Notes under the pieces: model-generated
Told to the model about the DNA's origin: nothing
Databases searched by the model: none
The model's input: the letters and a program-made list of their open reading frames with translations, nothing else
Position numbers and translations under genes: made by a program
DNA from: Deltaproteobacteria bacterium RBG_16_49_23
GTDB lineage: Bacteria; Desulfobacterota; BSN033; UBA1163
Length of the DNA stretch: 64,000 nucleotides
Direction of reading: 5' to 3'
Assembly: GCA_001798855.1 (NCBI GenBank)
Contig: MGQQ01000132.1
Location: 4,421 to 68,420, forward strand
In this document: positions 600 through 55,842 of the stretch, piece after piece
How the letters are laid out: each line of letters starts with the position of its first letter
Numbering within the stretch: position 1 is the first letter of the stretch

Positions 600-706
600 A
601 TTTTCTTCCTCCTTTTTCCAAGTATTGTAATGGATGCCATAAAAATTGAACGTATCTTTATTTCTGGCTTTTGGTGTAAACGAGTGGGGCATTTCTGTCT
701 TGTTCT

Positions 707-746
707 CTCCCCCTCTTTGGCAAAGAGGGGTCAGGGGAGATTTTAT
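707..746. repeat. REP-like palindromic repeat unit (CCCCTCTTTGGCAAAGAGGGG plus the extension TCAGGGGAGATTTTA)
   Basis: A perfect palindrome is followed by a conserved G-rich extension. The same motif recurs at 1104, 1679, 7306, 7355, 31084, 33293, 43181, 50785 and 55785. Confidence 0.7.
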
Positions 747-749
747 AAA

Positions 750-1097
750 TCATAGGCAACTCCATATCTCTTCCATCACTCCGTCCATATTCTCAAAGAC
801 ATCCCTGTCGGAAAACCTCATAACCTTTATCCCCATTTCCCCAAGAGTGTCGTCTCTTGTTCTGTCCTTTGCCTTGCCAGTCTCAGAATAGTGCCCTCCA
901 CCGTCAAGCTCTATCACAAGATTGGCCTTCGGATAGTAAAAATCAACGATATACTTCCCGATTATCTTTTGGCGGTAAAACGGATGTCCCTTCAGTTGCT
1001 TTCGTCTCAATTTTAACCACAACATCTTTTCAGCATCTGTCATGTTTTTTCTGAGGAGCTGCGATAATGCTTTCAACTGTTTATCATAAGAAAGCAT
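750..1097 (-). CDS. DUF559 endonuclease-domain protein (Vsr-like fold)
   Basis: A 115-aa ORF (...YIVDFYYPKANLVIELDGGGHY...DRTRDDTLGEMGIKVMRFSDRDV) is typical of DUF559 proteins. Confidence 0.75.
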   Translation of the reverse strand: MLSYDKQLKALSQLLRKNMTDAEKMLWLKLRRKQLKGHPFYRQKIIGKYIVDFYYPKANLVIELDGGGHYSETGKAKDRTRDDTLGEMGIKVMRFSDRDVFENMDGVMEEIWSCL

Positions 1098-1103
1098 TTG
1101 TTC

Positions 1104-1140
1104 TTAAAATCCCCCCTCGCCCCCCTTTGCCAAAGGGGGA
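1104..1140. repeat. REP-like palindromic repeat unit (inverted copy of the unit at 707-746)
   Basis: The sequence TTAAAATCCCCCCTCGCCCCCCTTTGCCAAAGGGGGA is the reverse complement of the left unit, with the extension facing the DUF559 gene. Confidence 0.7.
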
Positions 1141-1377
1141 TATAAAGATGATAGCCATTTCTTCAAGAGGTTTTTACCCACTCACTTGCTCGATGAGCTT
1201 TATTTTTAAACCGGTTATTGATTTAAGTCAATGATCCATCATAATATGGGTGTTAGTATAGAAAATATATGAGGGTTTTCCGGTTTTTCAACCACACTGT
1301 AACCCCCTGAATTCTGGACAATATGAGGACGTGGTGTTACGATTAATTTAAGATGCTTTTAAGAAAGGAGGCATCCT

Positions 1378-1593
1378 GTGGCTGAATATCAAACGGATGA
1401 AAAGGTCGCTTTCAACGGGAAAAAGGTTGAGGTTTTAGGCTCCACGTTTGAGGAGGGAAAACCCGTAAGCCCGATGAAATGGAGAGAAAAATTGAGAAAC
1501 CGTGAAGAGATGCTTGCCTATCTCAAGACAGGGGAACGTTACTGGTTCAGCGACGAATGGTTCGGCAGCGAGAAACGGAAGACAAAAGCATAA
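1378..1593 (+). CDS. hypothetical small protein (71 aa)
   Basis: An ORF with a GTG start preceded by AGGAGG. I recognise no domain. Confidence 0.4.
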   Translation: MAEYQTDEKVAFNGKKVEVLGSTFEEGKPVSPMKWREKLRNREEMLAYLKTGERYWFSDEWFGSEKRKTKA

Positions 1594-1678
1594 TCCGGCA
1601 GAGGTAGAACTAAATGGGTTTTGGAGACCCTTACGAATCAATTATTAAAAGTCTCAAAATAGTAAAGACATCGATTTG

Positions 1679-1761
1679 TAAAATCCCTCCTAACCTCCCT
1701 TTTCCTAAGGGAGGTCCCGCGTTTCGCGGGATTTGGCAAAGAAGGGATAGGGAGATTTTCC
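1679..1761. repeat. composite REP-like element (extension + palindrome CCTCCCTTTTCCTAAGGGAGG + small palindrome TCCCGCGTTTCGCGGGA + half-palindrome + extension)
   Basis: It shares motifs with the repeat family above. The small palindrome CCCGCG(T/A)3CGCGGG recurs at 43185-43204 in the opposite orientation. Confidence 0.6.
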
Positions 1762-1825
1762 AATGCCTATATCAATTCAATCCTGAGACTGCTATTAAGC
1801 ACATGATGAGAAGGAGGTAAATCCC

Positions 1826-2773: not shown

Positions 2774-2868
2774 ATCACCCCATCCCAAGGTGTGAGGCAT
2801 CTATATCCCGAAGGAACCTGGATTCCGCATCGGGTGCGGAATGACAGAATAATAGAATGGAGGTTTTC

Positions 2869-4827: not shown

Positions 4828-4844
4828 TTTCTTACATTAAGGAA

Positions 4845-4990
4845 TTCCCTCCCCCTCTGAGGCTATGTCGTAATTCCGTTCATGGTTCGAGAACCTCACC
4901 ACGAACGGAAAACATACATTTAAAATCAACTACTTAGCCGTTCGCCCTGAGCTTGTCGAAGGGGGAACGGCTAAGTACGACACAGTCTCC
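4845..4990. repeat. structured intergenic element with nested inverted repeats between cooS and acsB
   Basis: Outer inverted repeat AATTCCCTCCCCCTCTGAGG / CCTCCAGGGGAAGGGAATTT. Inner inverted repeats TTAGCCGTTC / GAACGGCTAA and CCGTTC / GAACGG. Confidence 0.55.
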
Positions 4991-5028
4991 AGGGGAAGGG
5001 AATTTATATTTTAAGAGGAGGTTAATCC

Positions 5029-7236: not shown

Positions 7237-7305
7237 GTAAAAAAGCATAGGGCATGGAGCATAGGGCATAGAGATTTTTTAACATTAGCTGTTTGAAATA
7301 AACCT

Positions 7306-7393
7306 TTTAAAATCCCTCCCCACCTCCCTTTGTCAAAGGGAGGAGAAAATATTTCCCCCTTTTGACAAAGGGGGATGTAGGGGGGATTAGATA
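7306..7393. repeat. pair of REP-like units in head-to-head arrangement
   Basis: AAAATCCCTCCCCACCTCCCTTTGTCAAAGGGAGG ... TCCCCCTTTTGACAAAGGGGGATGTAGGGGGGATTAG. These are flanked by the TTAGCTGTTTGAAA and TTTCAAAGAGCTAAAATCATA motifs shared with 31084-31195 and 43181-43300. Confidence 0.65.
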
Positions 7394-7492
7394 ACCTTTT
7401 TCAAAGAGCTAAAATCATATGAGATTTTTAAATTAGATTTTTTACGCTATGTGCTATGCCCTTTGCTTCATTATGTGAAAGGAGTCAAATCC

Positions 7493-18067: not shown

Positions 18068-20229
18068 TGGGCAAATGCTCCTTTCTCACCTATGAACAAT
18101 ATGTTACGGTTTGTCTCCGGACCCTTCACTTCAAAACATATAAAATCTAAAACTTTCCCCTTCCCATCCGCAATAGCCAGCAGATATTTCCCTGCTTTTG
18201 GAGTCCAGGGGATTGTCTTACCTGACATCTCCATAGGAAGCCCATTCAATACCCATTGGAAGTCATTCTCATTGCTCTGAGAGATGAAGAAGATTTTTTG
18301 AAGTTCAAGAGGGATATCAGGGTCAAGGGCGATCACCGTCCCGGAAGGAGGGTAGACGATTCTCGGATTGAATTGACCTATCTTCTGATCCTTTGAATTA
18401 GGTTCTGTCCCTCGGATAAACCATTCCTCCCGGGAGGGTGAAATGCCTTGCGAAAATTCAATCTCTCTTTGCACAAGATTTGGAAGGGCTTCTTTTTTTG
18501 CAATGGATTCATTTCGATGAAGAAAATTCATCGCCTCGATCCAGACGGGAGCCGCCCCGGAAATGCCACTCACATTCCACATCGGCTCTCCGGAAAAGTT
18601 TCCTGTCCAAACACCCACCGTATACTTCCTCGAATATCCAATACACCAGTTATCCCTCATATCCTTGCTGGTGCCGGTCTTCACGGCGGTCCAGAAGCGG
18701 GTGGATAATGGATTTTCAAGGCCAAAGGTGAAACTCCGGGCATCTCTGTCAGATAAGATATCCGAGATCAGAAAGGATGCTTCTTTTGAAAATATCCGCC
18801 TTTTCTGGTCTAATCGATTTTCTTGATAAATGAGCCGGAGTTCACTCCATATCCCCTCATTGGCCAGGGTTCGATAGGCATTGATAAGCTCCCAGAGGCT
18901 CACATCCGCTGAACCCAGGGCAAGGGAAAGTCCATAGAAATCACCTGATTCGTTAAGCCCCTTTATTCCCAATTGCCGCAGCCTACTCAAGAAGGGTTCA
19001 ATGCCGATCAAAGATAAGGCCTTGACGGCAGGGACATTAAGAGAGGAAGCCAGGGCGACTCTTGAAGTGATGAACCCTTTGAACTGGGAGTCATAATTTC
19101 TGGGTTGATAGATTCCGCTCAAGACGGCGATATCAAGAGGCGAATCATCCAGAAGAGAGGCCGGGGTAAGAATCCGTTGATCAAAGGCGAGGCCATAGAG
19201 AAAAGGTTTTAAGGTAGAACCCGCTTGTCTTTTAGCTTGAACTCCATCGACAAACCGGGAAGACAAAGGTTCTCCACTATAACTTACATAGGCCAAGACA
19301 TTCCCCGTTTGATTCTCCACGACCAGAACTGCTCCGTCCCTCACATTCTGCATCCTCAACGGATGAAGGTGATGCAGCAATCGGTCCAGAGCAAATCGCT
19401 GCGTTTCGCTGTCCAGAGTAGAAATGATGGTGGATCCATGGGGCTTTCCCTTTAATAATTGCCTCGCAACATGCGGGGCAAGATTCTCCCGTAGACGGAG
19501 TAAATTCGGTCCTAAAAATATCTGCCTCACCTTAGAATGAATCTCTTCCTCGCCAACCTTCGACTCCATTACTCTATTGAGATGTAAAGCCCTTTTGATT
19601 AACTCTGACGATGAAGCATTGGGGGATCGGATCAAGGCGGCCAGGGTGAGGGATTCTGATTGGTCCAATCCATGAGGATCTTTTCCAAATAATCCTCTCG
19701 AAGCCGCGGCAATCCCTTGAAGTTCTCCTCGGAATGTGATGAGGTTGAGGTAAGCTTCTAAGATCTCCTCTTTTGACCAACATTTCTCAATCTCCCATGC
19801 CTTGAGAACCTGCTTTCCTTTCTGCCATATTGATTTTCTCTCTTTTTTAGGTTGGAGTTCTTTATCCAAAAGGGAAGCTAATTGCATGGTGATCGTGCTT
19901 GCTCCTCGCAGGCTCTCTGAAGTCAGTCCTTTAATGAGTGCAGCCCCTATCGATTTATAATCCACCCCTGGATGTTCATAGAATCGTTTATCCTCTGCTT
20001 TAATCATAGCAACCCTCAGGGCAGGTGATATGTCCTTCAAAGAAATCCAGTCGAGCCTTCTTCGAGTTTTATCCGTTCTCAATTCATAAAGGACCCCTCC
20101 ATGCCGGTCAAGCAAAAGAGAATCTGATTTTACATGAGACTGCCGAACCTCGTCATAAGTAGGCAGGGCTTGGGCCTCCCCGGTCAAGACTAAAAAAAGG
20201 ATGAGAATCAAGAAAAATCGTTTCCTCAT
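18064..20229 (-). CDS. pbpC: penicillin-binding protein 1C
   Basis: A 721-aa protein with transglycosylase and transpeptidase motifs. It overlaps the yfhM stop by 4 bp, the conserved pairing. Confidence 0.85.
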   Translation of the reverse strand: MRKRFFLILILFLVLTGEAQALPTYDEVRQSHVKSDSLLLDRHGGVLYELRTDKTRRRLDWISLKDISPALRVAMIKAEDKRFYEHPGVDYKSIGAALIKGLTSESLRGASTITMQLASLLDKELQPKKERKSIWQKGKQVLKAWEIEKCWSKEEILEAYLNLITFRGELQGIAAASRGLFGKDPHGLDQSESLTLAALIRSPNASSSELIKRALHLNRVMESKVGEEEIHSKVRQIFLGPNLLRLRENLAPHVARQLLKGKPHGSTIISTLDSETQRFALDRLLHHLHPLRMQNVRDGAVLVVENQTGNVLAYVSYSGEPLSSRFVDGVQAKRQAGSTLKPFLYGLAFDQRILTPASLLDDSPLDIAVLSGIYQPRNYDSQFKGFITSRVALASSLNVPAVKALSLIGIEPFLSRLRQLGIKGLNESGDFYGLSLALGSADVSLWELINAYRTLANEGIWSELRLIYQENRLDQKRRIFSKEASFLISDILSDRDARSFTFGLENPLSTRFWTAVKTGTSKDMRDNWCIGYSRKYTVGVWTGNFSGEPMWNVSGISGAAPVWIEAMNFLHRNESIAKKEALPNLVQREIEFSQGISPSREEWFIRGTEPNSKDQKIGQFNPRIVYPPSGTVIALDPDIPLELQKIFFISQSNENDFQWVLNGLPMEMSGKTIPWTPKAGKYLLAIADGKGKVLDFICFEVKGPETNRNILFIGEKGAFAH

Positions 20230-23200
20230 GGAAGGACCTCAACCGTCTGGTTTGGGATCTCTCCGAACATCTCCGGATAATAGAGCGCCTCTACTCTCGT
20301 TGTCGGGAGTTGAAAAACTCCGCTCTGATTCAGCCGGAGGGTATATTCGACGACCCATTGTCCTTTGGGAACATACTCATAATAGGCCCGGAAGGCTTCA
20401 AAGGAACGTTCTTCATAGGCTGGCCAGACCCAGCCCTTTCTCTCCTCTCCTTTGGTGAGGAGTTGTGAATCTCTTGCCAGCCCCTTTCCAAGAATGGTTG
20501 CTCCCGAAGGAATAGGATCGCTCACCACAACCCAGGTTTGATCAGCCTGAGCCTCCAATTCCAGGCGCATTCGAATGATATCTCCTCGGTTCCATTGCTT
20601 GGATTGTTTCTGTTCGATCGGGATGATCGTCTTCTTAATCTTATATCCACTGAAGAACGGTTCTTTCAGAGGAATGGCCGCAAGACTCTGTATGGTCACC
20701 CACGGCTTCCCGTCCCCTTGATGGGAGATAGAAAGTTCTTCTTTCTTATTGGGCCAATGCATTAAAGAACTCTTCCCTTTGGGTGCTGCATTCCAGTCGG
20801 TCGTAAAAGATTCTGCAGATGAAGTCGTATGAGTTGAGCCAGAGACTGGAATGCTTTCAAAGACCTTTGAAAATTTTTCCATGGCAAGAACCCCCCAGGC
20901 GTTGGCCAGGGTCAAGTCCCATCTTCCCCTCCTCTGCCGGGCCAACGCCCCCTGAACCAATCTCGGCATATCCTCCTTCCAGTTGTCTGAGCGAAGAAGT
21001 GATAGGACGACACGTACAGCATTCACGTCATTGGAGACCATGAGCCACCATAAACCATCTGACCTTTCTGTCGAAAAATTCATGACCGTCCCTTGAAAAT
21101 TGAGACGGGACCGGATGATCTGCTCCGCCTCTTTCTTTCGTTCCTCACGATTCGGAATGGCCTGAACATTCTGGAGGATATTCAACCAATCGATCACCGC
21201 AGAGGTTGGCCAGAGGTTGGGTTCAATGGAGATGGAACTCAATAACTTCGGCTCCACCTTCTTACTCCTTGATAAGGCTTCTACCGCCGCTAATTTTCGA
21301 ATGGAAAGATCTGCTGTCGGAATTGGAGAATACCGGATGATCGATCCTTCAATAAACCTCCTGAGACCTGTTTCCATCTTCTCTCTTGCCTCATCGGGTA
21401 TATTCCATCCTGCCTCGTCACCGATGGCGATGATGTAGGAGGTCAATGTCGGACTTCCATAGAGACAGGGGGGAAAATATTTCACCAGACCATCCGTGTC
21501 GAGATGAGAAGGAAGCTCAGACAGACATCTCTTCCAAAGATTTTCATCTCGGAGTGCAACAGCCACTGAGACCTTCTGCTCCATGCATCCATAGGGATAC
21601 CACTTCATATATTCCAGGACGCCATTCAATCCCTCATTAATTTTGGGCCGCAAACTCACCCTTACACCTCCACGGCCCGGAAGTGCGTCCTTAGGTCGTT
21701 CCACAGAGGTCTTAAATTCCTTTTTCACCTGGGCGATGGTCGCCTGAAAAGTCCTCACCGCAAGGGCAGGAATCACCCTCTGCGTTACCTTGATCCGATC
21801 TCCTAATTCAGCGGCTTTCTCCTTCACCTCCACTTCCCAGCGAAGCATTTCAACATTGAGTGGAACAATCGCATCCCATCCGATCTCTTTTAATTCCCCG
21901 GGGGTTAAAGAAACCGCCATGGGGCTAAAGGGTTGTGAAATACCTTCGGCCTTTACAGAAACGTCTAATTCCAAATTCCGTTTTGTTGTATTGCGAAGTG
22001 AAAATCCTGCCCTGAATCGATCACCCTCTCTCAACAAAGGAGGAAGCCCGGATAAGATCATCAAATCCTGCGTAGATTGAATCGAGGTGGAACCTGTCCC
22101 AAAGAGACTTAGCCCACCACTCGCAACCGCTACAATCCTGAAACTGGTGATCGAGTCATTCAGGACCACTTCAACTGTCGCCTCTCCATTGCCATCCAGT
22201 AATACACGGCCTTTCCATAACAAAAGGGTATCGAATAACTCCCTTGTGGACTGCCTTCCTCCGCCTCCTCCTGGAGGAAATGCCTTCAATCCGAAGTGGC
22301 GTTTTCCGATGACCTGCATCTGGGCAGTTGAGGTATGAACGCCATAACCCCTCCGGCCCATCATCGCAGAGAGGATTTCCCAGCTTTGATTGGGCATCAG
22401 CTCAAGCAATCCTTCATCCACTGCAGCAAGAGCAACCTCGCTCCCCGGGGGAGGAACTTTCCCGTCGGAGGTTCTGACCTTGATATTGACCCTTGCTTTC
22501 TGTCGAACCTGATAGACTTTCCGGTCGGAAGAGATGCTCACCTTCAGCTCATGATCCTTCCATCCCACTCTGATTTCAGAAATACCAAGTTTATAAGCAG
22601 GTTTTCCAAGATCGATCATGGCGGTCGGCTTGATCCACGGCAGTCGTCCTCTCACAACCAGAACAGAGACAAAGACATTAGGGGCATAGGTCCCTTTCAC
22701 GGACACTTCAACAACAGGCCTCTTCCCTGAGATCCTTTTCACCCATGCCTCTATCACCCCTTCTCTTTCCACGGTGATCAGAGCCATTGCATTCCTGAAC
22801 GGCATCCGCACCTGAAAGGTTGCTTTCTCACCGGGTTCGTATCTCTTCTTCTCGGAAAGGAGGTCAATCCGGTCATGATCCCCAACCTCAAACCACCACT
22901 CGTCCTTTCCAGCCACCCAGACATCCCTGTGAGCGACCGTCTTATTCCCAGCATCATCAAGGCTCTCTGCCTGAAGGATCACATTTCCGGAAACAGGGGA
23001 TTGAGATTCGCAGATCAGGAGCCCTTTCGAATCAGTTTTTCCCTCACAGAGAGCGACAACCTTCTTTATTTCTGTCGAATGCTCGTAGGCATAGAATCCT
23101 CCGACAAGACGCTTCCGGTGGGTATAGATTTTTCTTTCAAAAAGTTCAACTTTCACCGGCGCTCCTGAAACGGGTTTGCCGGAAAGGTCAACCACGGCAA

Positions 23201-25946
23201 TATGAAATTTAAAAAAATCCTTCGAGACAGCCCATGAATCCGGCTTGATTCCGATGAGATATTTAGAATGCCAGAGTGGAATTTTTGAAGAAACGGTCTG
23301 AATCTCTCCGCTGGGGTCATTAAATTCCATTTCAGTCAATATCTCTTTGGGGCTTTCAACTTTTGACAAATTGGAGATCGGCGTCTGTGTATAACCGGAC
23401 TTATCCAGAACCAAGTCAATGGTCGGGAGTTTCTTCTCCTTTTTCTCCTGGATTCTCTCCTCCCTTTCCATCCCTTGTTCAGACTCCTCAACCCCCAGAG
23501 GCTCTCCCCTTCGAGTAAGCCCTTCTTTGACCGATCCATTGCTAAAGATGAAATCATCAAATCCTTCAAAAGACGGAATGGTTTTAGGCCTGATTTCGCT
23601 TCGCAATTTGATGGGAAGGAGACTTGCCCCTCCCCCCGCAAGATACTGGATGCTCAGATCCAGCAAGACCTCTCTGGCATTGATCAACGGTTCGCTGGGT
23701 GGCTGGATGATCCCTTTTAAGAGGGGAACTCGAAACTCCTCAACCCTGAATCGTCCAGAGGTCCACTCTCGAGGGTCCCTCCGGGAGGGTGTTTTTCTCT
23801 GATCGGTCTCTGCCTTTTTCAACAGGCGAACTTCATAAAATCCGAGTTTTGACTCCCTGGGAATCATCCAGGTCGTCTCAGCAACTCCATTCGCATCCCA
23901 TTTCAATGGAAACTGGTATTTCTGCCCGCTTCCGTAATGTTCGATGGAAATAAAATCAGGCATTTGAGGATTGGGAACTGCCGAAAATCCTTTCATCGTA
24001 TGTTGGCGAAAAAAATGTTTCATGTGGACTGTCTCACCGGCACGGAGCAATGGTCGATCAAAAATGGTGTGAGCGATGAATGGACCTGAGTAAAACTCAT
24101 TGGGAAGATTGAACCTCCAGGGTTCGATCCCATTATCCCAACCAGAATGAACAAAGGCCATATCTTCAGAGGTTTGCGCCGTGACAAAAAGGCCTCCTTC
24201 AAGAGAGTGGAGAGCACCCATCTCCTGATAAACATAATGATCGTTTATTTTAAACTCACATCTTGGAAGCTCTCCCTGTGAAGGCAATGTTCCTTCGATT
24301 CGTGCGATCCCGCTGGCGTCTGTCTTTCCTTGCCATAAGACCTTTTCCTGGCAATCCCTTACCGTCACCATCGCCTCTTTCACAGGCTCACCTGTATCAA
24401 GAGCCGTTACCCAAGCCAATGAGGATTCCCTTCCCCATTTAAAGTGAACAGAGAGATTGGTCACCAGGGCTGCCGTGGGTACATACATAGGTCGTTGTGA
24501 ACCGAGGAGAGATTTTCCTAAGAGGGCACTCTCAAGTTCAACAATGTAGAGACCGGGTTTCTTAAACGGAATTCCAACCACCTCAAAAGCATGAGCCCCC
24601 AGGGGTTTGGGGATTTTAAAATCTTTCACTCCCTTTCCGTCACTAAAAATGGATTTCTCTCTCGAAGCAGAAGCCACCTTCCTCAACCAGCCCTGAATGC
24701 TTTCTCCTTTTTCAGGTTGAACATTCAGGACCTTTCCCAGCACCTTTCCAACAATCCCCTTCTCTTCGCCAATTTTTAACATGGTTGCCTTCACCTCAGG
24801 CTCCAGGTCCCTTAACGTTACGGGAAGCACAGGCTCAGGCTTCAGTTCTACAACCCCAAATCTTGCTGAAAACTTTGCCAGGGGAGGATACGCCTCAGTT
24901 TGTACAGAGAGTGGGAATTTATCCGCATTGACGAGTGGTCGGCCTGTCACATCTTTAAGCCCTGGTGGAAGTTCGATGCTGAAATTCGTATTCTCTGGGA
25001 AAGGACCTTTGAAAACAGCTCCGGTGATCTCCTCCCTTTCTCCAAATTGTGGCTTCCAAATCCTCCCGTCAGGCCCTTTTAATACGATACTCATTGCCTG
25101 ATCCAACGAAATAGGAGAGGAGAAGTAGAGGTGCATCGGCAAGAGAGGAATACATCCTGATCCCTTATGTTCTCTTTCACAACTAAACTCTGCGGAGAAG
25201 GGTTTTCTGACCTGAAAACGAAATATCTGATCCTGGTCTGTTGGCACACCTGCCTTTGACATCACTCCTTTGCCCCAGATCAGGCTGACTTTTGCATTGG
25301 ATGGGAAACGCTGTTTGCTCTGGATTAGGATGATCGGAAGGGGTGGGGGCTTCCTATATCTAAAAAGAGCCTTCAAGATCTCTTCCTTCTCCCTCCCAGT
25401 AATGAACTTAATCCCTACACGATCCTGGATATCTTCAATAGAGAAAAAGACATTTTGAATCACAGATTCTTCATCAGGTTCTGCATCTAAGGGCAGGACA
25501 AAAATCTGCTCTTCATTAAGATATTGCGACCCTTCATAAGGGGTAGACGACTTAATAGCAGGGCCACCTGTGGAGAAGGAAAATTCCTTCTGGCCTGTGA
25601 CCTCCTGTCCGGAAAGGGTCTTCAGGTTGGGCCTTAATTGAAACTCACATCGAATCCCTGCGGGAAGATCTCTCTCAAAATCAAATACCCAATTTTTTCC
25701 ATCTGCCCAGCGGCTGGTTCCCTTTTCAGAGCAATCGATATCGAAGGGTTCGACAAGGACTCGTGGGTCACCGAAGGGCACCATCTGTTCTGAAAAACGG
25801 ACACTTACCTGACGAACATTTTTAACCGTGCCCTGAGGAGAAAACATCTCAACCCGAGACCCATCTTCTGCATAAGTCCAAGTAATAAACAAAAAGCAAA
25901 GTGACAAAAATAATCCGATGTATTTGGGTGTCATGTCTCCCTCCAT
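20226..25946 (-). CDS. yfhM: bacterial alpha-2-macroglobulin family lipoprotein (1906 aa)
   Basis: It has a signal/lipobox N-terminus and a thioester-like GCMEQ motif. Its size and its partnership with pbpC fit the family. Confidence 0.8.
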   Translation of the reverse strand: MEGDMTPKYIGLFLSLCFLFITWTYAEDGSRVEMFSPQGTVKNVRQVSVRFSEQMVPFGDPRVLVEPFDIDCSEKGTSRWADGKNWVFDFERDLPAGIRCEFQLRPNLKTLSGQEVTGQKEFSFSTGGPAIKSSTPYEGSQYLNEEQIFVLPLDAEPDEESVIQNVFFSIEDIQDRVGIKFITGREKEEILKALFRYRKPPPLPIILIQSKQRFPSNAKVSLIWGKGVMSKAGVPTDQDQIFRFQVRKPFSAEFSCEREHKGSGCIPLLPMHLYFSSPISLDQAMSIVLKGPDGRIWKPQFGEREEITGAVFKGPFPENTNFSIELPPGLKDVTGRPLVNADKFPLSVQTEAYPPLAKFSARFGVVELKPEPVLPVTLRDLEPEVKATMLKIGEEKGIVGKVLGKVLNVQPEKGESIQGWLRKVASASREKSIFSDGKGVKDFKIPKPLGAHAFEVVGIPFKKPGLYIVELESALLGKSLLGSQRPMYVPTAALVTNLSVHFKWGRESSLAWVTALDTGEPVKEAMVTVRDCQEKVLWQGKTDASGIARIEGTLPSQGELPRCEFKINDHYVYQEMGALHSLEGGLFVTAQTSEDMAFVHSGWDNGIEPWRFNLPNEFYSGPFIAHTIFDRPLLRAGETVHMKHFFRQHTMKGFSAVPNPQMPDFISIEHYGSGQKYQFPLKWDANGVAETTWMIPRESKLGFYEVRLLKKAETDQRKTPSRRDPREWTSGRFRVEEFRVPLLKGIIQPPSEPLINAREVLLDLSIQYLAGGGASLLPIKLRSEIRPKTIPSFEGFDDFIFSNGSVKEGLTRRGEPLGVEESEQGMEREERIQEKKEKKLPTIDLVLDKSGYTQTPISNLSKVESPKEILTEMEFNDPSGEIQTVSSKIPLWHSKYLIGIKPDSWAVSKDFFKFHIAVVDLSGKPVSGAPVKVELFERKIYTHRKRLVGGFYAYEHSTEIKKVVALCEGKTDSKGLLICESQSPVSGNVILQAESLDDAGNKTVAHRDVWVAGKDEWWFEVGDHDRIDLLSEKKRYEPGEKATFQVRMPFRNAMALITVEREGVIEAWVKRISGKRPVVEVSVKGTYAPNVFVSVLVVRGRLPWIKPTAMIDLGKPAYKLGISEIRVGWKDHELKVSISSDRKVYQVRQKARVNIKVRTSDGKVPPPGSEVALAAVDEGLLELMPNQSWEILSAMMGRRGYGVHTSTAQMQVIGKRHFGLKAFPPGGGGGRQSTRELFDTLLLWKGRVLLDGNGEATVEVVLNDSITSFRIVAVASGGLSLFGTGSTSIQSTQDLMILSGLPPLLREGDRFRAGFSLRNTTKRNLELDVSVKAEGISQPFSPMAVSLTPGELKEIGWDAIVPLNVEMLRWEVEVKEKAAELGDRIKVTQRVIPALAVRTFQATIAQVKKEFKTSVERPKDALPGRGGVRVSLRPKINEGLNGVLEYMKWYPYGCMEQKVSVAVALRDENLWKRCLSELPSHLDTDGLVKYFPPCLYGSPTLTSYIIAIGDEAGWNIPDEAREKMETGLRRFIEGSIIRYSPIPTADLSIRKLAAVEALSRSKKVEPKLLSSISIEPNLWPTSAVIDWLNILQNVQAIPNREERKKEAEQIIRSRLNFQGTVMNFSTERSDGLWWLMVSNDVNAVRVVLSLLRSDNWKEDMPRLVQGALARQRRGRWDLTLANAWGVLAMEKFSKVFESIPVSGSTHTTSSAESFTTDWNAAPKGKSSLMHWPNKKEELSISHQGDGKPWVTIQSLAAIPLKEPFFSGYKIKKTIIPIEQKQSKQWNRGDIIRMRLELEAQADQTWVVVSDPIPSGATILGKGLARDSQLLTKGEERKGWVWPAYEERSFEAFRAYYEYVPKGQWVVEYTLRLNQSGVFQLPTTRVEALYYPEMFGEIPNQTVEVLP

Positions 25947-31012: not shown

Positions 31013-31083
31013 CGGAGCATTTAATGGGTGAGGAGTGTCAAATTGAAAATAGGTATCAATTTAGGGCTTTGAAAAAAAACATC

Positions 31084-31195
31084 TAATCCCCCTTCATCCC
31101 CCTTTGTCAAAAGGGGGAAATCCTTTTTCCTCCCTTTGGCAAAGGGAGGTGAGGAGGGATTTTACAAGTTTTTTCAAACAGCTAAATTGATAAGA
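31084..31195. repeat. pair of REP-like units plus the conserved tail GGGATTTTACAAGTTTTTTCAAACAGCTAAATTGATA
   Basis: It has the same architecture as 7306-7393 and 43181-43300. Confidence 0.65.
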
Positions 31196-31222
31196 AAATA
31201 TGAATTTCAATCAGCCGGCATA

Positions 31223-33292: not shown

Positions 33293-33338
33293 TAACCCCC
33301 CTCACCCCCCTTAAGCAAAGGGGGGAATGGGGAGAGTT
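33293..33338. repeat. REP-like unit (CCCCCTTAAGCAAAGGGGGG plus a G-rich extension)
   Basis: A member of the repeat family, followed by an AT-rich TTTGACATTTGA low-complexity spacer. Confidence 0.5.
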
Positions 33339-36414: not shown

Positions 36415-36480
36415 CTAAAATTCCAACTTCAATTGTCATTTATCAATGGTCAATGATCATTGTTTATTGATTATTGATAA

Positions 36481-37527
36481 TTAGTATTGGTATTTGCCCC
36501 TTACCTCTTCGGAAGGGAGGCTTTCGTTCTGACGAACGGAGTTATCCACGGCTGTCACTGTATATTCATAATCCTGCCCGATTTGAACTTCCATATCAAG
36601 GTAGGTCTCTTTTGTCAGAGGAGCAGGGTTTAGTCTCTTAAACTCTTTCTCTCCAGGTTGTCTCCGGTAGACATAATAGCCTAAAAGATCAGGCTCCCTG
36701 TTCTTTCTCCAGTTGAGCTCCATCCCATTCTTAAGAGGAACCGCCACCAGACCAAGGGGAGAACCTGGCGGGGTAAGGTCGGTGGGTGTGATCGGAAAGC
36801 TCAAAGAACCCTTTCCCTCCATATCGGTCCTTACAACCCGCTTCACCGCCCTGACCGAATAGATGTATCTTTTCTCATTCTCCACACCCAGATCAGTATA
36901 TTGGGTCACTGTCAGAGGCTCCCTGTTGAGCGGCTGGAAAGTAAACTCTTCCCCCTCTCCCTTCCGGTAGATATTATAACCTGTCGCACCCAATACGGGT
37001 TCCCAGTGGATATCCACCCTCTTATCACCCCGCTCTGCCTTTACTGCTCTTGTCATGTGGGGCGGGTAATCCCAGTAAACCGTAACAGGATTTGAAGGAG
37101 CGCCAGGATAACCTCTCCGGTTTAACGTCACTACTTGATAAACATAGACTTTTCTTGCTTCCAGGTTTTCGATGAGCAGGGACATCCTCTTTCCCCTGTC
37201 CTCTCCTTTGCTGTCAAGCTTTGCTTCAAAGATCACCTTCGCCTTCTCCCCGCAACCCCTGCATTCATCCCCGATCAGGTTCCCTTCAGAGCGGAGAATC
37301 TTAAACTCTGCCAGATCCGTCAAAACAGATTTATCGGTATTTTCTTTTGGAAAGGTCCATTCCAGAAGAATCCGCTCTTCTCTGGACTTTGCTTCCAGAT
37401 CAACAATCCGTTTCGGAACGACCAATGACCACGGCACCGGAGACGCCTTCTGACCGCAGGCGCATATAACTATTAGAAGGGCCATCAAGAGTATAACAGT
37501 CTTTGCCATAATATCAGTTGTATTCAT
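36481..37527 (-). CDS. lipoprotein with fibronectin type III repeats
   Basis: A signal/lipobox (LLIVICACG) followed by three FN3-like repeats (...YVYQVVTLNRRG..., ...YIYSVRAVKR..., ...YEYTVTAVDN...). Confidence 0.65.
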   Translation of the reverse strand: MNTTDIMAKTVILLMALLIVICACGQKASPVPWSLVVPKRIVDLEAKSREERILLEWTFPKENTDKSVLTDLAEFKILRSEGNLIGDECRGCGEKAKVIFEAKLDSKGEDRGKRMSLLIENLEARKVYVYQVVTLNRRGYPGAPSNPVTVYWDYPPHMTRAVKAERGDKRVDIHWEPVLGATGYNIYRKGEGEEFTFQPLNREPLTVTQYTDLGVENEKRYIYSVRAVKRVVRTDMEGKGSLSFPITPTDLTPPGSPLGLVAVPLKNGMELNWRKNREPDLLGYYVYRRQPGEKEFKRLNPAPLTKETYLDMEVQIGQDYEYTVTAVDNSVRQNESLPSEEVRGKYQY

Positions 37528-37618
37528 TTAAAAAGAGTCGGCGCAGGTTGAGGTTAAGGATAAGGTTAAGGTTTTTTAAAGACTTTCTCAACCTAAACCT
37601 CAACCTTGACCTAATATT

Positions 37619-38299
37619 TTATTTACGTTCTCCAAAAATTGCTGTTCCCACCCTCACATAGGTCGCCCCTTCTTCAATGGCAACCTCAAAGTCGTTTGAC
37701 ATTCCCATGGAGAGCTCTTTTACGGGCACGCCTTCCTTGATCATTTTTTCCTTCAGTTCCCGCAACTGAATGAAGTAGGACCTGCTCATCTCCGGTGAAT
37801 CGAAATAGGGCGGCATGGTCATCAATCCCGCCAGGGAGAGATGCCTGAGATTGAGAACCTTCCGGGCGATATCGAATGTCCTGGCCTCTTCGGATCCAAA
37901 TTTAGTCGTCTCTCCGGAAAGATTGACTTCAATCATAACATTCATCGTCCGGCCCTCTTTTTCAGCCCTCCGGTCCAATTCTTCCGCCAATGGGATGCTG
38001 TCCAGAGAATGGATCATATCAAAGAGGCGAACCGCATATTTTGCCTTATTCGATTGAAGGTGTCCGATAAAATGCCAGGCAACAGGATGGCCAATCTCTT
38101 CAATCTTCTTCTGCGCCTCCTGAACATAATTTTCTCCCAGGATTAAAACCCCTGCTTCGACAGCCTCCCGAACCCTTGCGATTTCCACTGTTTTGGAGAC
38201 AGCAACAAGTTTAATCTCTTCGGGATTTCTACCAGCTTTTCTCGCCGCCTTCTCTATCCTCTCCATCACCCTTAAAATATTTTCTTCAATCTGAGTCAT
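37619..38299 (-). CDS. yggS: YggS-family pyridoxal-phosphate homeostasis protein
   Basis: ...VAVSKT...GENYVQE...IGHLQSNK... The start is probably at MTQIEEN (38299); the track's upstream ATG lies inside a 21-bp tandem duplication. Confidence 0.85.
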   Translation of the reverse strand: MTQIEENILRVMERIEKAARKAGRNPEEIKLVAVSKTVEIARVREAVEAGVLILGENYVQEAQKKIEEIGHPVAWHFIGHLQSNKAKYAVRLFDMIHSLDSIPLAEELDRRAEKEGRTMNVMIEVNLSGETTKFGSEEARTFDIARKVLNLRHLSLAGLMTMPPYFDSPEMSRSYFIQLRELKEKMIKEGVPVKELSMGMSNDFEVAIEEGATYVRVGTAIFGERK

Positions 38300-43096: not shown

Positions 43097-43164
43097 CCCC
43101 CCTGCCTTCGCCGGAGCGCCTGCCCTCCGCAAGGCTTCTGGAGGCGGGGCTTCGCGCAGGCAGG
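43097..43164. repeat. 66-68 bp structured repeat, copy A (CCCCTGCCTTCGCCGGAGCGCCTGCCCTCCGCAAGGCTTCTGGAGGCGGGGCTTCGCGCAGGCAGG)
   Basis: It is near-identical (2 mismatches) to 55843-55908. The termini CCTGCC/GGCAGG and internal CCTCC/GGAGG could pair. Confidence 0.7.
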
Positions 43165-43180
43165 TCACCCCTCATTGCCA

Positions 43181-43300
43181 AATCCCGCGAAACGCGGGAC
43201 TCCCTTTGGTCTCCGACCCAGAGCGGTCTCTGACCCGGAGGGCAAAGGGAGGTTGGGAGGGATTTTACAGGACGGTTTCAAACAACTAAATTGATACATC
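43181..43300. repeat. composite REP-like element upstream of hrcA
   Basis: ATCCCGCGAAACGCGGGACT palindrome, then a split palindrome CCCTTTGG...GCAAAGGGAGG, then GGGAGGGATTTTACAGGACGGTTTCAAACAACTAAATTGATA. Confidence 0.6.
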
Positions 43301-48847: not shown

Positions 48848-48980
48848 TAATGTGATTAGGTTATATAGTGTAGTGCGTCATAAATCCCTTTACTATGAGT
48901 TAAAAAATTTGACATGATTAAGTAAATTGACTATAATGATGTCAAATTTCATTGAAAAATGACGGTATAGATATCAAAGC

Positions 48981-50763: not shown

Positions 50764-50784
50764 AACCAACCCTCTTTCTTTCCC

Positions 50785-50838
50785 TCTTAACCCCGCCTCG
50801 CCTCCCCTTAAAATAAGGGGAGGTAGGGAGGGGTTATG
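50785..50838. repeat. REP-like unit variant (CCTCCCCTTAAAATAAGGGGAGG with flanking extensions)
   Basis: Same family architecture. Confidence 0.5.
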
Positions 50839-51541: not shown

Positions 51542-51806
51542 CTCGGTTTCCCACCTCCCTCATCAATTTAAATTCTTCAATATCATAGAGAACTTAGAAT
51601 ATCAATCTATTTTTTTGCCAATGTCTATCAAAATAGATTGTCATTTGCATTTTTTCCTTGACAAATAATTTAATTGTGTTATGTTTCACAAGACTTTGCT
51701 GCCATCTAACTATTTCATTTCCATTAAATTTTCAAGCGGGTTGTGGGGGGGGGTGAATAAGATTCCCGTTTCAAAAATTTTAAGAAAGGAAGGTGAATAA
51801 TTGGCT

Positions 51807-54800
51807 ATGAAGATTACGCGAAGAAGTTTTTTAAAGATTTCTGGCGCCACGGCCGCAGGGACCGTGATGGGCGGCCTGGGATTCGATCTTTCGCCGGTAG
51901 AATCCTATGCCCAGGAACTCCGGATTAAAGGGGCAAAGGAAACCACCACGGTCTGCTGTTACTGTTCGGTCGGCTGTGGAATCATTGTCCATACCGATGC
52001 CAAAGGAAAAGTGATTAACACCGAGGGCGATCCTGATCATCCGGCCAGTGAAGGCGGCCTCTGTGCAAAAGGAATGGCGCTCTATCAACTTGTAACCAAC
52101 AAAGATAGGTTAACAAAGGTCCTGTACAGGGCTCCCAATAGCGCAAAATGGGAAGCCAAATCCTGGGATTGGACCCTTACGGAAATTGCAAAGAGGATTA
52201 AGAAAAGCCGTGATGCCAGTTTCGTTCAGAAAAATGATAAAGACCAGGTCGTCAACCGGACCAATGGTATCGCCGGCGTCGGCTGCGCCCATGTCAATAA
52301 CGAGGAAGGCTGGCTCTACCAGAAATTCCTCCGGGCTTTGGGGTTAGTCTATATAGAATTTGAAGCCCGCCTCTGACACAGCTCCACTGTAGCGGCTCTG
52401 GGAGAGTCGTTCGGACGCGGAGCAATGACCAATAGCTGGACGGATATTGGGGTGAGCGATTGTATCCTCATTATGGGAAGCAATACGGCTGAAAACCATC
52501 CCGTTGCGATGAAATGGGTCTTAAGAGCACAGGAGAAAGGCGGAAAGATCATCAGCGTTGATCCGAGATTCACCCGTACCTCCGCCAAGGCAGATATCTA
52601 TGTGCCGATGCGGTCAGGAGGGGATATCGCTTTCCTGGGTGGGATGATCAAATATCTGCTTGATAAAGACCTTATCTTCAAAGATTATGTCGTGAACTAT
52701 ACCAATGCTCCGTTTATCGTGAGCGAAAAATATGGGTTCAAAGATGGCCTCTTCTCCGGCTACAACCCCGAAAAACGAGCCTATGATAAAGCGACCTGGG
52801 TTTTTGAAAGAGATGAAAAGGGAATCCCGAAAAAGGATATGACCCTGCAACATCCAGGATGCGTTTACCAACTGCTGAAGAAACATTATGCTCGATATGA
52901 CTTAGATACGGTTTCCAGCATCACCGGTACACCCAGGGCTGATCTGATGAAAGTCTATGAGACCTTTGGCGCTACTGGAAAACCGGATAGAGCAGGAACA
53001 ATGCTTTACGCCATGGGATGGACCCAGCATACCACAGGAACCCAGATCATCCGTGCGGGCTCGATGATCCAGTTGCTCTTGGGAAATATCGGAATGGCCG
53101 GAGGCGGAGTGAATGCATTGAGAGGTGAGTCCAACGTACAGGGAATAACTGACCATGCCTTACTCTTCCACATTCTGCCCGGTTATCTGCCCAATGTAAA
53201 TGCTGCGCTTGAAAATCTTGAAAAATATAACGCCACCACTCCAAAAACATCTGATTCGATGAGCGTCAACTGGTGGGGTAACAGACCCAAATATATCGCC
53301 AGTCTCCTCAAATCCTTCTATGGCGAAAACGCCGCCAAGGAGAATGATTTGGGATTTGGATGGCTCCCGAAGTTGGATGTGGGTCAGAATGCCTCCTGGC
53401 TCTTCATGTTCGATGAGATGTTTAATGGTAAATTTTCAGGGTTCCTCTGCATGGGAATGAATCCGGCTTGCTCGAGCCCAAATTCCAATAAGACCCGACA
53501 GGCATTGGCCAAGCTGGATTGGATGGTTGATATTGACCTTTTTGAGAACGAGACCAGTAGTTTCTGGAAGGGTCCCGGAATGGATCCCAAAAAGGTCAAG
53601 ACCGAAGTCTTCCTCCTTCCGGCAGCTTCTTCCGTTGAAAAGGAAGGAAGTGTCTCGGATAGTGCCAGAACAGGACAGTGGCGTAATAAAGCATCCGATC
53701 CTCCCGGTGATTCACAGGCAGATGGACAGATCGTCCACGACCTCTATATGAAAATAAAGGACCTCTACGCCAAAGAAGGAGGAGCCTTCCCCGATCCGAT
53801 CCTGAAATTAAAATGGGATTATGCAAAGGATGGAAAGGTTGATTGGCACGCTGTGGCAAAAGAGATCAACGGCTGCTTCACCGAAGATATTGCCGAACAT
53901 CCGGTAGATAAGAAGGCTTATAAGAAAGGAACACAGGTCCCCAATTTTGTCTTCCTTCTGGCTGACGGCCGTACCTCCTGCGGGAACTGGCTCTATTCTG
54001 GAAGCTACACTGAAGCAGGAAATATGATGGCCCGCCGGGATAAAACCCCTATCCCCACTGCCAACATTTTTCCCAGATGGGGCTGGGCATGGCCACTCAA
54101 TCGTCGGATCATTTACAACCGCGCCTCAGTTGACCTCAATGGAAAACCATGGGATCCAAAACGGGCAGTCATCCAATGGGATGGCTCCAAGTGGGTAGGC
54201 GATGTGCCGGATAATGCAGTCCCACCTATGGGCCTTCCGAACGGCAGATATCCCTTTATCATGAAGCCTGATGGAGTGGCCTCATTCTTTGGACCGGGAC
54301 TGGCGGATGGTCCCTTCCCGGAACATTATGAACCCCTGGAATGTCCTATTGAGAAGAATCCTCTCTCTTCGCAGAGGATCAATCCAGCCACGCCTATCTT
54401 CAAGGGCGAACTCGATAAGTTTACAACCTGCGATCCTAAATTTCCCTTTATTGCCACCACCTACCGTCTGACCGAGCACTGGCAGACAGGGCTCATGACC
54501 CGATATCAGCCATGGCTGGTGGAGGCAGAACCTCAGATGTTTGTTGAGTTAAGTATGGAATTGGCCAAACTGAGAGGGATCAAGAATGGAGATCGTGTCA
54601 CCCTCAGTTCCCCACGAGGAAAGATGTGGGCCAAGGCCATGGTGACCAACCGTATTAAACCCTTTCATGTTGCTGGTCAGACGGTCCATCTTGTTGGAAT
54701 GACATGGCACTACGGATGGATGGTCCCCAAGGATGGTGGGGATAGCGCCAACATCCTCACCCCGTCCATTGGAGACGCCAACACATTGATCCCGGAATAT

Positions 54801-54956
54801 AAGGTCTTCCAGGTTAATGTGACCAAAGAAGAGAAGCCCAAAGTGGAAAAGAAGCCTGAGCCAAAAGCCGAAGCCAAGCCAGCGCCAAAAGCTGAAGCGA
54901 AGCCTGAACCAAAACCCGAGGTGAAACCAGCCCCAAAAGCTGAGACAAAAAAGTAA
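51807..54956 (+). CDS. fdhA: formate dehydrogenase catalytic subunit, selenocysteine-containing (TGA at 52374-52376 read as Sec)
   Basis: A Tat signal (RRSFLK) and the 4Fe-4S motif CCYCSVGC. The sequence EARL-TGA-HSSTVAALGESFGRGAMTN matches the canonical FdnG/FdhF Sec context. ORFs 51801-52376 and 52425-54956 are in the same frame. Confidence 0.9.
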
Positions 54957-54973
54957 AGGAGGAGGTGATATAA

Positions 54974-55702
54974 ATGGCGGAAGGAAAATCATTCTTTGTA
55001 GATACGACGAAATGCACAGCATGTAGAGGATGTCAGGTTGCCTGCAAGCAATGGAATCAGCGGGCAGCAGAAAAAACATACAGTCAGGGAAGTCACCAGA
55101 ATCCTCCGGACCTTTCTTTTAACACCTGGAAATTGGTTCGATTCAGCGAAGTGCCCGGAGAGAAGGTGAATTACTACTTCTTCCCGGATCAATGCCGCCA
55201 CTGTGTCTCTCCTCCCTGCAAGGAGGTTGCGGAAGGAAAGGCAAAAGGCGCTATCCTGCAGGACGAGAAGACCGGGGCAGTCATCTTCAATCCGAAGATG
55301 AAGATCAAACCGGAAGATTTCAAGGAGATTCGGGAGTCCTGTCCTTACAATATCCCGAGGATCTCCGGCGCGGGAATCATGGCAAAATGCACCATGTGTT
55401 CCGACCGGATCAAAGAAGGGATGCTTCCAGCCTGTGTGAAAGCCTGCCCGACCGGAACGATGAATTTCGGCGAACGTAAAGCCATTCTCGAAATGGCCAA
55501 CAAAAGACTGGCAGAGGCAAAAGGTGTTTATAAAAATGCCATTCTGACAGATCCCAATGATATACGGGCGATCTACCTCCTTGTGGATGATCCGAAGAAG
55601 TATCATAAATTTGCAGTGGCAGAGAATACGATCGGAATCACAAGAAAGGTTGCTCTCAAACGCATTCTGAAACCTCTCAAAGAGTTCCAATGGCTCGGAT
55701 AA
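54974..55702 (+). CDS. fdhB: formate dehydrogenase iron-sulfur subunit
   Basis: Multiple CxxCxxCxxxCP ferredoxin motifs, about 240 aa. Confidence 0.85.
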   Translation: MAEGKSFFVDTTKCTACRGCQVACKQWNQRAAEKTYSQGSHQNPPDLSFNTWKLVRFSEVPGEKVNYYFFPDQCRHCVSPPCKEVAEGKAKGAILQDEKTGAVIFNPKMKIKPEDFKEIRESCPYNIPRISGAGIMAKCTMCSDRIKEGMLPACVKACPTGTMNFGERKAILEMANKRLAEAKGVYKNAILTDPNDIRAIYLLVDDPKKYHKFAVAENTIGITRKVALKRILKPLKEFQWLG

Positions 55703-55728
55703 AACCCTGAAAAAGGGGGGTGTTGTCA

Positions 55729-55772
55729 GGGCTTGTTTCGGCACGGAAGTTCCGAAACAAGCCCGTTTTTTT
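55729..55772 (+). terminator. Rho-independent terminator after fdhB
   Basis: GGGCTTGTTTCG...CGAAACAAGCCC followed by GTTTTTTT. Confidence 0.7.
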
Positions 55773-55784
55773 CACCTCCGATGA

Positions 55785-55825
55785 CTCCCTCTCCCTTGAC
55801 GGGAGAGGGTTGGGGTGAGGGTGAA
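55785..55825. repeat. REP-like unit (CCCTCTCCCTTGACGGGAGAGGG plus a G-rich extension)
   Basis: Same family. Confidence 0.5.
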
Positions 55826-55842
55826 TATGGATGCCCCCCCTC

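Follow-up and report, generated by a model that had tools for sequence, protein, structure and literature searches.

One obscure class of intergenic bacterial repeats has been given several names: BoxC (Bachellier, 1990s), potential intrastrand triplex or PIT (Hoyne & Maher 2000) and TM_ECO (Holder et al. 2015, PMC4666352). The TM_ECO consensus reads CCCTCNCCC N3-6 GGGNGAGGG N3 GGGNGAGGG, and circular dichroism and nuclear magnetic resonance (NMR) have shown that the G strand by itself adopts a triplex of very high stability and not a quadruplex (PMC4666352). Purine-motif triplexes do not form in RNA, and PIT/TM_ECO elements had no promoter or terminator activity in E. coli (PMC4666352). For these repeats of hundreds of genomes, the 2015 survey could identify neither a function nor a mobility gene nor a part played by the triplex in vivo (PMC4666352). 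Here we analyse a 64,000-nucleotide stretch of contig MGQQ01000132.1 from Deltaproteobacteria bacterium RBG_16_49_23 (the whole stretch is called the window below), in which eleven intergenic hairpins follow the same general design and two of them flank, in inverted orientation, a gene for a small nuclease of the DUF559 family. The window is ordinary chromosomal DNA with a carbon monoxide dehydrogenase/acetyl-CoA synthase cluster and the recQ, dapB, hrcA and formate dehydrogenase genes. The reading that we prefer, with a probability of roughly 60 per cent, is that these triplex modules are selfish mobile DNA and that the DUF559 cassette is their protein-coding master element, whose product would recognise and cut the folded modules.

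The eleven sites had been listed in an earlier note on this DNA as a dispersed family of palindromes resembling repetitive extragenic palindromic (REP) elements. All of them exist and all are intergenic, but they agree in layout and not in sequence: a homopyrimidine arm is joined by a loop of 3-5 nt to the complementary homopurine arm, after which come about 3 nt and then a G-rich box that usually continues into ATTTTA. The literal consensus CCCCTTTGNCAAAGGGG was found with at most two mismatches at 7 sites only (expected 0.05; none of 100 shuffles reached 7). Taken together, the 11 pyrimidine/purine hairpins carry 13 G-rich extensions, for which the chance expectation is about 0.05. The downstream tail described in the note, TTTCAAACAGCTAAATTGATA, was located at 7399, 31172 and 43276, and in inverted form at 7278 and 31054. 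The note was also right that the two units flanking the DUF559 gene are inverted with their extensions pointing inward (710-745, + strand; 1104-1139, - strand). The family reaches beyond the window: at least 116 contigs of a species-representative genome collection match one degenerate 24-mer, and modules are frequent in unselected relatives (see below). In describing the box as a G-rich extension, the note missed its key feature, which is that the box is the mirror image of the 3' arm and hence makes the sequence potentially capable of forming an intrastrand triplex of the BoxC/PIT/TM family.

In the window copies the extension is the mirror, not the complement, of the 3' arm of the hairpin, with A or T standing opposite A. 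In the purine-motif (reverse-Hoogsteen) triple helix the third strand runs antiparallel to the purine arm and pairs by this code, with G opposite G and A or T opposite A. Since the stem-top AAA receives A.A-T and T.A-T triads from the ATT of the ATTTTA extension, most window copies are complete 9-triad designs; a 9-triad G/A/T module of the window type reads CCTCCCTTTGGCAAAGGGAGGTGAGGAGGGATT. A scanner written for the mirror rule, which reports perfect or near-perfect hairpin-plus-box modules and uses mononucleotide shuffles of the window as null, found 12 modules on 10 of the hairpins, mostly with 9 triads and 0-1 mismatch, and 0-1 modules (mean 0.05) in the shuffles. In the eleventh hairpin (43200-43267) the loop is broken by a 33-nt insert. 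No strand bias of the modules was seen by the scanner within the window. With a pyrimidine arm, a loop, a purine arm, a short loop and a mirror third segment, on stems of at least 6-8 nt, the window repeats are, as judged from their sequence, class II purine-motif modules of the intrastrand-triplex type. By analogy with TM_ECO they would be expected to fold into a triplex when single-stranded: in the G-rich strand the hairpin would form and the third segment would fold back antiparallel onto the purine arm, giving G.G-C, A.A-T and T.A-T triads, nine of them in most window copies. Watson-Crick pairing of the C arm with the box was considered and rejected, since the boxes are mirror and not complementary, and ViennaRNA, which treats Watson-Crick pairs only, returned as alternative folds only slippage of the G runs against the C runs.

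The mirror relation was followed beyond the window in two ways. When the degenerate 24-mer ("arm + 3 nt + box") was run over the genome collection, the two free purine positions of the box were found, among the matches listed, to covary with the arm as its mirror image, as in GAGGGG-TTA-GGGGAG, GGGAGG-TTA-GGAGGG and GGGGGG-CGA-GGGGGG. Further arm classes in the fetched loci obey the same rule (GGGGAGGG followed by GGGTGGGG, GGGAGAGG by GGTGAGGG, and GGGGAGG by GGAGGGG). The second test set consisted of 1.02 Mb of loci picked for the unrelated gene acsB and not for the motif. These unselected relatives contain 48 modules per Mb, the commonest stem length being 9 nt and the commonest length of the second loop 3 nt; a shuffle of this 1.02 Mb gave 1 module. 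The set comprises 97 hairpin sides that are distinct and asymmetric. A perfect mirror of the arm was found within 1-6 nt in 34 of them, a perfect direct copy in 1 and a perfect match to a permuted arm in 5, and the mirror relation, with A or T opposite A, covers 13 different arm classes. This comparative covariation is independent evidence that the predicted three-segment fold is under selection. Selection of the G-rich arm and box for a G-quadruplex (G4) would agree with TM_ECO-type copies such as that at 55787 (GGGAGAGGGTTGGGGTGAGGG), which are canonical four-tract G4 motifs. However, the commonest classes (GAGGGG-TTA-GGGGAG and the GGGGGG type) lack four separated G tracts, and a G4 needs neither the complementary C arm nor a non-G base at the mirror position, yet mirror prevailed over direct copy by 34 to 1. 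Taking into account that NMR identified the TM_ECO structure as a triplex and not a G4 (PMC4666352), we regard the quadruplex explanation as very improbable.

One window copy, at 55787-55821 (+ strand; CCCTCTCCC-ttgac-GGGAGAGGG-ttg-GGGTGAGGG), fits the TM_ECO consensus exactly and is the only one in the window to do so; by blastn a sequence related to it was detected in 5035 of 5426 complete E. coli genomes. The other ten hairpins belong to the triplex class and not to the TM_ECO subfamily, because they follow the same rule with different stems. In common with BoxC/PIT/TM_ECO, the window repeats are built of three segments on the class II purine-motif plan, have a second loop of 3 nt that is often TTA, are intergenic and multicopy without strand bias, vary locally in presence and absence, and form inverted "type A + type B" doublets. 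They differ in that most copies have a mixed G/A-T stem (CCYCCCTTT) and a third strand ending in ATT(TTA), that copies lie inside units with terminal repeats and target duplications resembling miniature inverted-repeat transposable elements (MITEs), and that modules of the window type occur in anaerobic Desulfobacterota, Nitrospirota and other phyla. A further difference is that the published repeats have no mobility gene nearby, whereas a DUF559 nuclease gene lies next to the modules both in this window and at ycjD of E. coli. The window elements form a new subfamily, in composite forms that are also new, within a repeat class that is known but obscure. The contigs matching the 24-mer come from Nitrospirota, several orders of Desulfobacterota, Methylococcales, Nitrospinota, Methylomirabilis, Omnitrophota, Goldbacteria, Cellvibrio, Acinetobacter, Geomonas and others. 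A collection of 2.9 million viral contigs yielded only 12 motif matches and no close relative of the DUF559 protein, and a literature search with literal sequences (GGAGGGATTTTA and similar) gave chance matches only.

The modules occur in the window in three forms, namely as singlets, as MITE-like doublets of about 140 bp and as the 532-bp DUF559 cassette. The cassette (666-1197, - strand) is composed of imperfect terminal inverted repeats (core GAGTGGG) that enclose a module, an open reading frame (ORF) and a second module. The module at its downstream end (710-745, + strand) is CCCCTCTTT-ggc-AAAGAGGGG-tca-GGGGAGATT(TTA), with 9 triads and no mismatch, and the box of the module at the upstream end (1104-1139, - strand) ends 13 nt before the ATG of the DUF559 gene (750-1097, - strand; 115 amino acids, Vsr-like PD-(D/E)xK nuclease, Pfam PF04480). 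The unit is bordered by a 10-bp target-site duplication (CTTTATTTCT at 656-665 and CTTTATTTTT at 1198-1207). In the closest relative, locus L118, a single CTTTGTTTTT is present at the empty site, and the spacer that leads there from the LUD-domain gene to a small conserved ORF measures 236 nt, versus 781 nt in the window. Seven different neighbourhoods of the cassette were found on six homologue contigs and the window: apart from the window site it is located after rubrerythrin, DAO oxidoreductase, sigma-54 regulator and AMP-binding enzyme genes, in the gap between alpha-2-macroglobulin and pbpC, and next to a 73-residue DAO-family ORF (L224). The seven aligned copies share the whole unit, module variation being confined to loops and spacers, and the copy in L211 has a second clean target duplication (AAAATAAAG/AAAATAAAT). 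The cassette is a discrete unit that occurs in many contexts. Its protein has relatives in more than 120 database clusters at 80-100% identity, many of them on short contigs, and in homologue gene calls over-extended at the N-terminus the upstream module is read as protein (LEKGGEGGF...). Purifying selection acts on the ORF, the mean ratio of nonsynonymous to synonymous substitution rates (dN/dS) being 0.15 at dS values of 0.3-1.0 among cassette copies. One Syntrophaceae metagenome-assembled genome (MAG) carries both the cassette and an ORF-less doublet. In Methylococcaceae, two-module elements (13 copies fetched) contain exactly the two modules of the cassette in the same order and orientation, with TCTAA in place of the ORF and with terminal repeats of their own.

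Two MITE-like doublets were identified in the window. The first (7283-7423, about 141 bp) has terminal inverted repeats at 7286-7298 and 7399-7411, modules at 7311-7343 (- strand) and 7354-7387 (+ strand) with the boxes outward, and flanking ATTTTT(T)AA direct repeats (ATTTTTTAA at 7274-7282, ATTTTTAAA at 7424-7432). The second (31052-31193) lies in the opposite orientation, with terminal inverted repeats at 31054-31074 and 31172-31192, modules at 31085-31118 (- strand) and 31129-31161 (+ strand), and GAAAATA at both 31045-31051 and 31194-31200. They are 91% identical over 85 nt, and in both, terminal inverted repeats of about 20 nt (TATCAATTTAGCTGTTTGAAA) enclose two different modules with outward boxes. 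The same doublet family, with the same terminal repeats, is present in several other Desulfobacterota MAGs and in acsB loci. The first doublet was compared with 80 orthologous acsB loci from metagenomes, in which the acsB-cdhD spacer is normally 10-120 nt long and often forms a conserved long hairpin. In the window the doublet sits in the loop of this spacer hairpin, and it is absent from L118, L119 and L140, which are the closest relatives (AcsB 95, 94 and 88% identical). The spacer hairpin itself (window 7237-7282 and 7433-7470; L126-L140) is a conserved long-range structure of GCATAG(G/C)GCATAG repeats and their complements, whose loop is hypervariable and holds different small palindromic repeats in different lineages.

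With a length below 300 bp, terminal inverted repeats, a target duplication, no ORF and several copies, both doublets have the properties of MITEs, the empty orthologous site having been seen for that at 7283-7423 only. They resemble the bacterial MITEs Correia, Nezha and Chunjie in their terminal inverted repeats of about 20 nt, their AT-rich direct repeats of 7-9 bp and the lack of an ORF; unlike these, their conserved core is a pair of triplex modules common to several phyla, and it is the ends that differ. The guess in the earlier note that the palindromes might be non-autonomous mobile elements gains support from the terminal inverted repeats, the flanking direct repeats and the absence of both the 7283-7423 doublet and the DUF559 cassette from orthologous sites. 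These insertion polymorphisms are clear and show that MITE-like units are what the modules travel in.

The DUF559 protein matches PF04480 and, by sequence, the PDB entry 3HRL (E = 5e-14), an "endonuclease-like protein" of N. gonorrhoeae. The AlphaFold (AF2) model (pLDDT 83.5) had 3HRL as its closest match in Foldseek and the homing endonuclease I-Bth0305I (catalytic domain, 3R3P; E = 4e-4) as its next, with AbaSI/PvuRts1I, Vsr (1VSR), the endonuclease domain of the R2 retrotransposon and TnsA as more distant matches. In 21 homologues the core residues D52 and H69 are invariant and E63 and D65 are conserved in at least 90%. The Pfam match, the modelled fold and the acidic/His core all place the protein among the predicted Vsr-like/DUF559 nucleases. 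The catalytic domain of EDxHD/Vsr-like homing endonucleases such as I-Bth0305I (PMC3239194, PMC2677866) superposes on the model, and DUF559 genes, like those of homing endonucleases, are polymorphic in presence and absence inside conserved operons. In contrast to homing endonuclease genes they are free-standing and intergenic, in no intron or intein, and in contrast to the I-Bth0305I type the protein has only about 115 amino acids, has no separate DNA-binding domain and is encoded between structured repeats. The candidate identity of a homing endonuclease gene in the strict sense was rejected because the gene is free-standing.

The association between modules and DUF559 was initially set aside as a coincidence (0 of 196 module or acsB loci had such a gene) and was revived by the strong signal around DUF559 genes themselves. 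The sample of 23 consisted of 22 loci found by tblastn in a plasmid/chromid collection and E. coli ycjD. At least one module was present within 200 nt at 17 of the 23 loci, and modules were present on both sides at 7. The linked loci belong to Deinococcota, Cyanobacteriota and Alpha-, Beta- and Gammaproteobacteria (including E. coli ycjD), and the phylogenetic breadth of this adjacency is real. Module density was 1.94 per kb near DUF559 and 0.13 per kb in the remaining approximately 9 kb per locus, a 14.7-fold difference (binomial P = 2.6e-13, a value that overstates independence because the sampled loci are partly orthologous, as in the case of the Deinococcus hpa loci). In two Deinococcus species long inverted repeats surround the DUF559 gene, and the modules CCTCCCCC/GGGGGAGG/GGAGGGGG make up the inner parts of these repeats. 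Inspection by eye revealed that 3 of the 6 "negative" loci also have flanking elements that the strict scanner had missed: modules with 5-nt stems in Picosynechococcus, modules with a nested hairpin in their second loop at the Sphingomonas pnt locus and, in Novosphingobium, long flanking inverted repeats that are not clearly of the triplex type. The insertion points of DUF559 genes inside conserved operons and clusters (sufB|sufC, pntAA|pntAB, yqeY|dnaG, hpa and paa) are as expected of a selfish insert. No paper connecting DUF559 with repeats or triplexes was found in the literature, and the association is apparently unreported.

In E. coli K-12 a degenerate hairpin is located at the stop codon of ycjD, and a canonical BoxC follows about 170 nt downstream; since there are 23 TM_ECO copies in 4.6 Mb, the probability of this proximity by chance is about 0.004. 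Between ycjD and the BoxC there is a partial duplication of the ycjD 3' end. At two loci regular module arrays lie just downstream of the DUF559 gene: in Photobacterium sp. GJ3 (L228, 5370-6954) 14 modules of two alternating types span about 1.6 kb, and in N. gonorrhoeae (L238, 5496-6196) modules recur with a period of about 280 nt.

The comparison with REP elements and bacterial interspersed mosaic elements (BIMEs), with which the earlier note had likened the repeats, holds for their behaviour: they are dispersed and intergenic, occur as singlets and head-to-head doublets, and a pair of them brackets a gene. Membership in the REP family fails with respect to tag, lineage specificity and enzyme. 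REPs are lineage-specific, whereas the 24-mer is found in many phyla. The GTAG or CGTC tetranucleotide that marks one end of a REP palindrome (PMC3733652) was not seen in the window or locus copies when their sequences were read, no dedicated scan having been made; the flanks of the modules consist of the mirror box and TAAAAT/ATTTTA, which is part of the third strand. What the modules flank, in the window as in other phyla, is a DUF559 gene and not that of a REP-associated tyrosine transposase (RAYT), which was not searched for elsewhere in the source genome. The modules share with REP/BIME and REPIN-RAYT systems the short intergenic palindromes as singlets and inverted doublets, the small nuclease-type gene between two inverted units and the large excess of repeats over enzyme genes. 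RAYT is an HUH/Y1 transposase, whereas the enzyme here is a PD-(D/E)xK Vsr-like nuclease, and unlike REPs the modules have an additional mirror third strand and target-site duplications. The REP/BIME label is wrong in detail and right in spirit. That these are classical REP/BIME elements moved by a RAYT encoded elsewhere in the genome is hardly credible, for all the similarity in dispersal, doublets and gene bracketing, as the mirror rule has no role in REP biology.

An action of the hairpins in RNA, as terminators, 3'-end stabilisers or translational insulators with an incidental or Shine-Dalgarno-like G-box, would suit their stability and their location at gene ends and inside operons, and one box does lie upstream of the DUF559 ATG. 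However, a distance of 13 nt is too long for a Shine-Dalgarno site, and the modules occur in both orientations relative to transcription. Rfam and tRNA scans of the window gave no matches, which places the repeats outside known RNA families. The published data on PIT activity in E. coli and on purine-motif triplexes in RNA (PMC4666352) argue in the same direction. Neither this explanation nor the transcript-stabiliser role proposed in the earlier note accounts for the mirror covariation with A or T opposite A, and we consider a function in RNA improbable.

In the mechanism that we favour, the modules would spread horizontally as singlets, as two-module MITE-like elements and as the cassette of about 530 bp. 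The DUF559 nuclease would recognise and cut the folded or extruded module, the ORF-less doublets and the singlets would be non-autonomous relatives of the cassette, and the whole would be the triplex-repeat counterpart of RAYT and REP/REPIN. An enzymatic action of DUF559 on the modules, as their mobiliser or as a homing parasite, is inferred. A bolder extension, that DUF559 proteins including YcjD are dedicated BoxC/PIT nucleases which recognise the folded single-stranded triplex or the extruded doublet and drive copying or transposition across phyla, is tentative and may well prove wrong.

A different coupling would make DUF559 a homing-type parasite or cargo that invaded the centre of pre-existing doublets, the modules being spread otherwise, for example by a DDE transposase that works in trans and uses the outer inverted repeats. 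It agrees with the location of the ORF exactly between the two boxes of a doublet that is also known without it, with the fold similarity to I-Bth0305I and with the vast excess of modules over DUF559 genes. It also agrees with the terminal inverted repeats of ordinary kind and the flanking direct repeats of 7-10 bp that both doublets and cassette possess, and with the variation of the outer repeats by lineage. On the other hand, no transposase or parent insertion sequence with matching ends was noticed in about 2 Mb of fetched loci, which were not searched systematically for one, and it is left unexplained why unrelated outer repeats in Deinococcus, Sphingomonas, cyanobacteria and Desulfobacterota always enclose modules of the triplex type. 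The terminal and direct repeats speak somewhat for a conventional transposase; that triplex modules recur within unrelated outer repeats speaks somewhat for the modules being the functional ends. We think the parasite or cargo arrangement unlikely, and DUF559 as mobiliser is slightly favoured over a homing-type coupling.

Several observations weigh against the nuclease as master element. Target duplications are the expected product of a DDE transposase. Because the duplications found here are of this kind and the outer terminal repeats differ by lineage, another, unseen enzyme could move the elements. No DUF559 gene was detected by tblastn and then by HMM (hidden Markov model) search near the 116 motif-selected and 80 acsB loci (196 loci, 1.8 Mb), so that any action of the enzyme on the modules would have to be in trans, from rare copies. 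In E. coli, ycjD (sapF-fabI interval; L218, L262) is an accessory gene, found in 3378 of the 5426 complete genomes, and BoxC is in all of them, and some genomes lacking the ycjD-adjacent BoxC copy keep 14-18 BoxC places. Dimethyl sulphate footprinting detected no TM_ECO triplex in vivo, and no mobility genes were found near TM_ECO (PMC4666352). In strain Nissle the segment with ycjD and BoxC is replaced by a TetR/RND efflux island, and there is no clean empty site. The E. coli data on ycjD and BoxC do not decide between the two couplings of DUF559.

The recurrent adjacency of DUF559 across phyla provides the first candidate enzyme for triplex repeats and makes an old question testable. If the link is enzymatic, it would explain the spread of the repeats and give a function to a very large DUF family, and YcjD with BoxC would be a tractable E. 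coli test of triplex recognition in vivo. DUF559 as a triplex-repeat nuclease would mean that RAYT-REP has a parallel in a structure-guided mobile system and that the DNA triplex plays a natural role in vivo. If the link were only hitch-hiking, the "REP-like" repeats of these uncultured anaerobes would still be reclassified as triplex-type.

The remaining members of the family in the window are singlets and altered doublets. The hairpin at 33294-33335 is single and has a third strand on both sides (a "palindromic" module); that at 50789-50835 (CCTCCCCTT/AAGGGGAGG) is also single with mirror boxes on both sides, and its DNA fold has an energy of -18.1 kcal/mol (z = -4.5). A rearranged doublet (1679-1761, - strand) consists of a full module (1679-1714), a nested mini-hairpin TCCCGCGTTTCGCGGGA (1715-1731) and a half module with box (1732-1761). 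In a decayed doublet (43168-43296, + strand), a half module (43168-43182) is followed by the nested TCCCGCGAAACGCGGGA (43183-43199), the hairpin at 43200-43252 with its 33-nt loop insert at 43210-43242, the box GGAGGGATTTTA (43256-43267) and the right terminal repeat (43276-43296). The mini-hairpin, TCCCGCG(A/T)(A/T)(A/T)CGCGGGA, stands in both cases between two module halves in place of the inner arms of the doublet. Beyond the window this pattern is represented by L039 and L097; Nitrospirota copies have an analogous TCCCGAAA...TTCGGGA at this position. GC-rich inserts of about 32 nt ending in CCCGGAGGG are found exactly in the loops of module hairpins, after CTTTGG, at the unrelated loci L111 and L224 as well as at window 43210-43242. 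Their position suggests a tiny element targeting module loops, comparable to IS1397, which targets the loops of REPs.

The window also contains a second repeat family, a 66-nt GC-rich palindrome CCCCTGCCTTCGCCGGAGCG...GCGCAGGCAGG at 43099-43164 and 55842-55907, the two copies being 97% identical. A shorter form without the inner approximately 30 nt is present in L118 (6680-6716) and, in L224, inside the loop of the downstream triplex module; because this short form exists, the long palindrome looks like a nested insertion into it. Two AT-rich intergenic regions with palindromes or inverted repeats (36418-36495 and 37531-37620) are unrelated to the triplex family. At 54836-54931 a 24-nt tandem repeat (GCCAAAAGCCGAAGCCAAGCCAGC-like) lies in the C-terminal part of a molybdopterin oxidoreductase ORF (52425-54956) and encodes a low-complexity Lys/Pro/Ala/Glu tail. 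The largest gene of the window is an ORF of 1906 amino acids at 20226-25946 (- strand).

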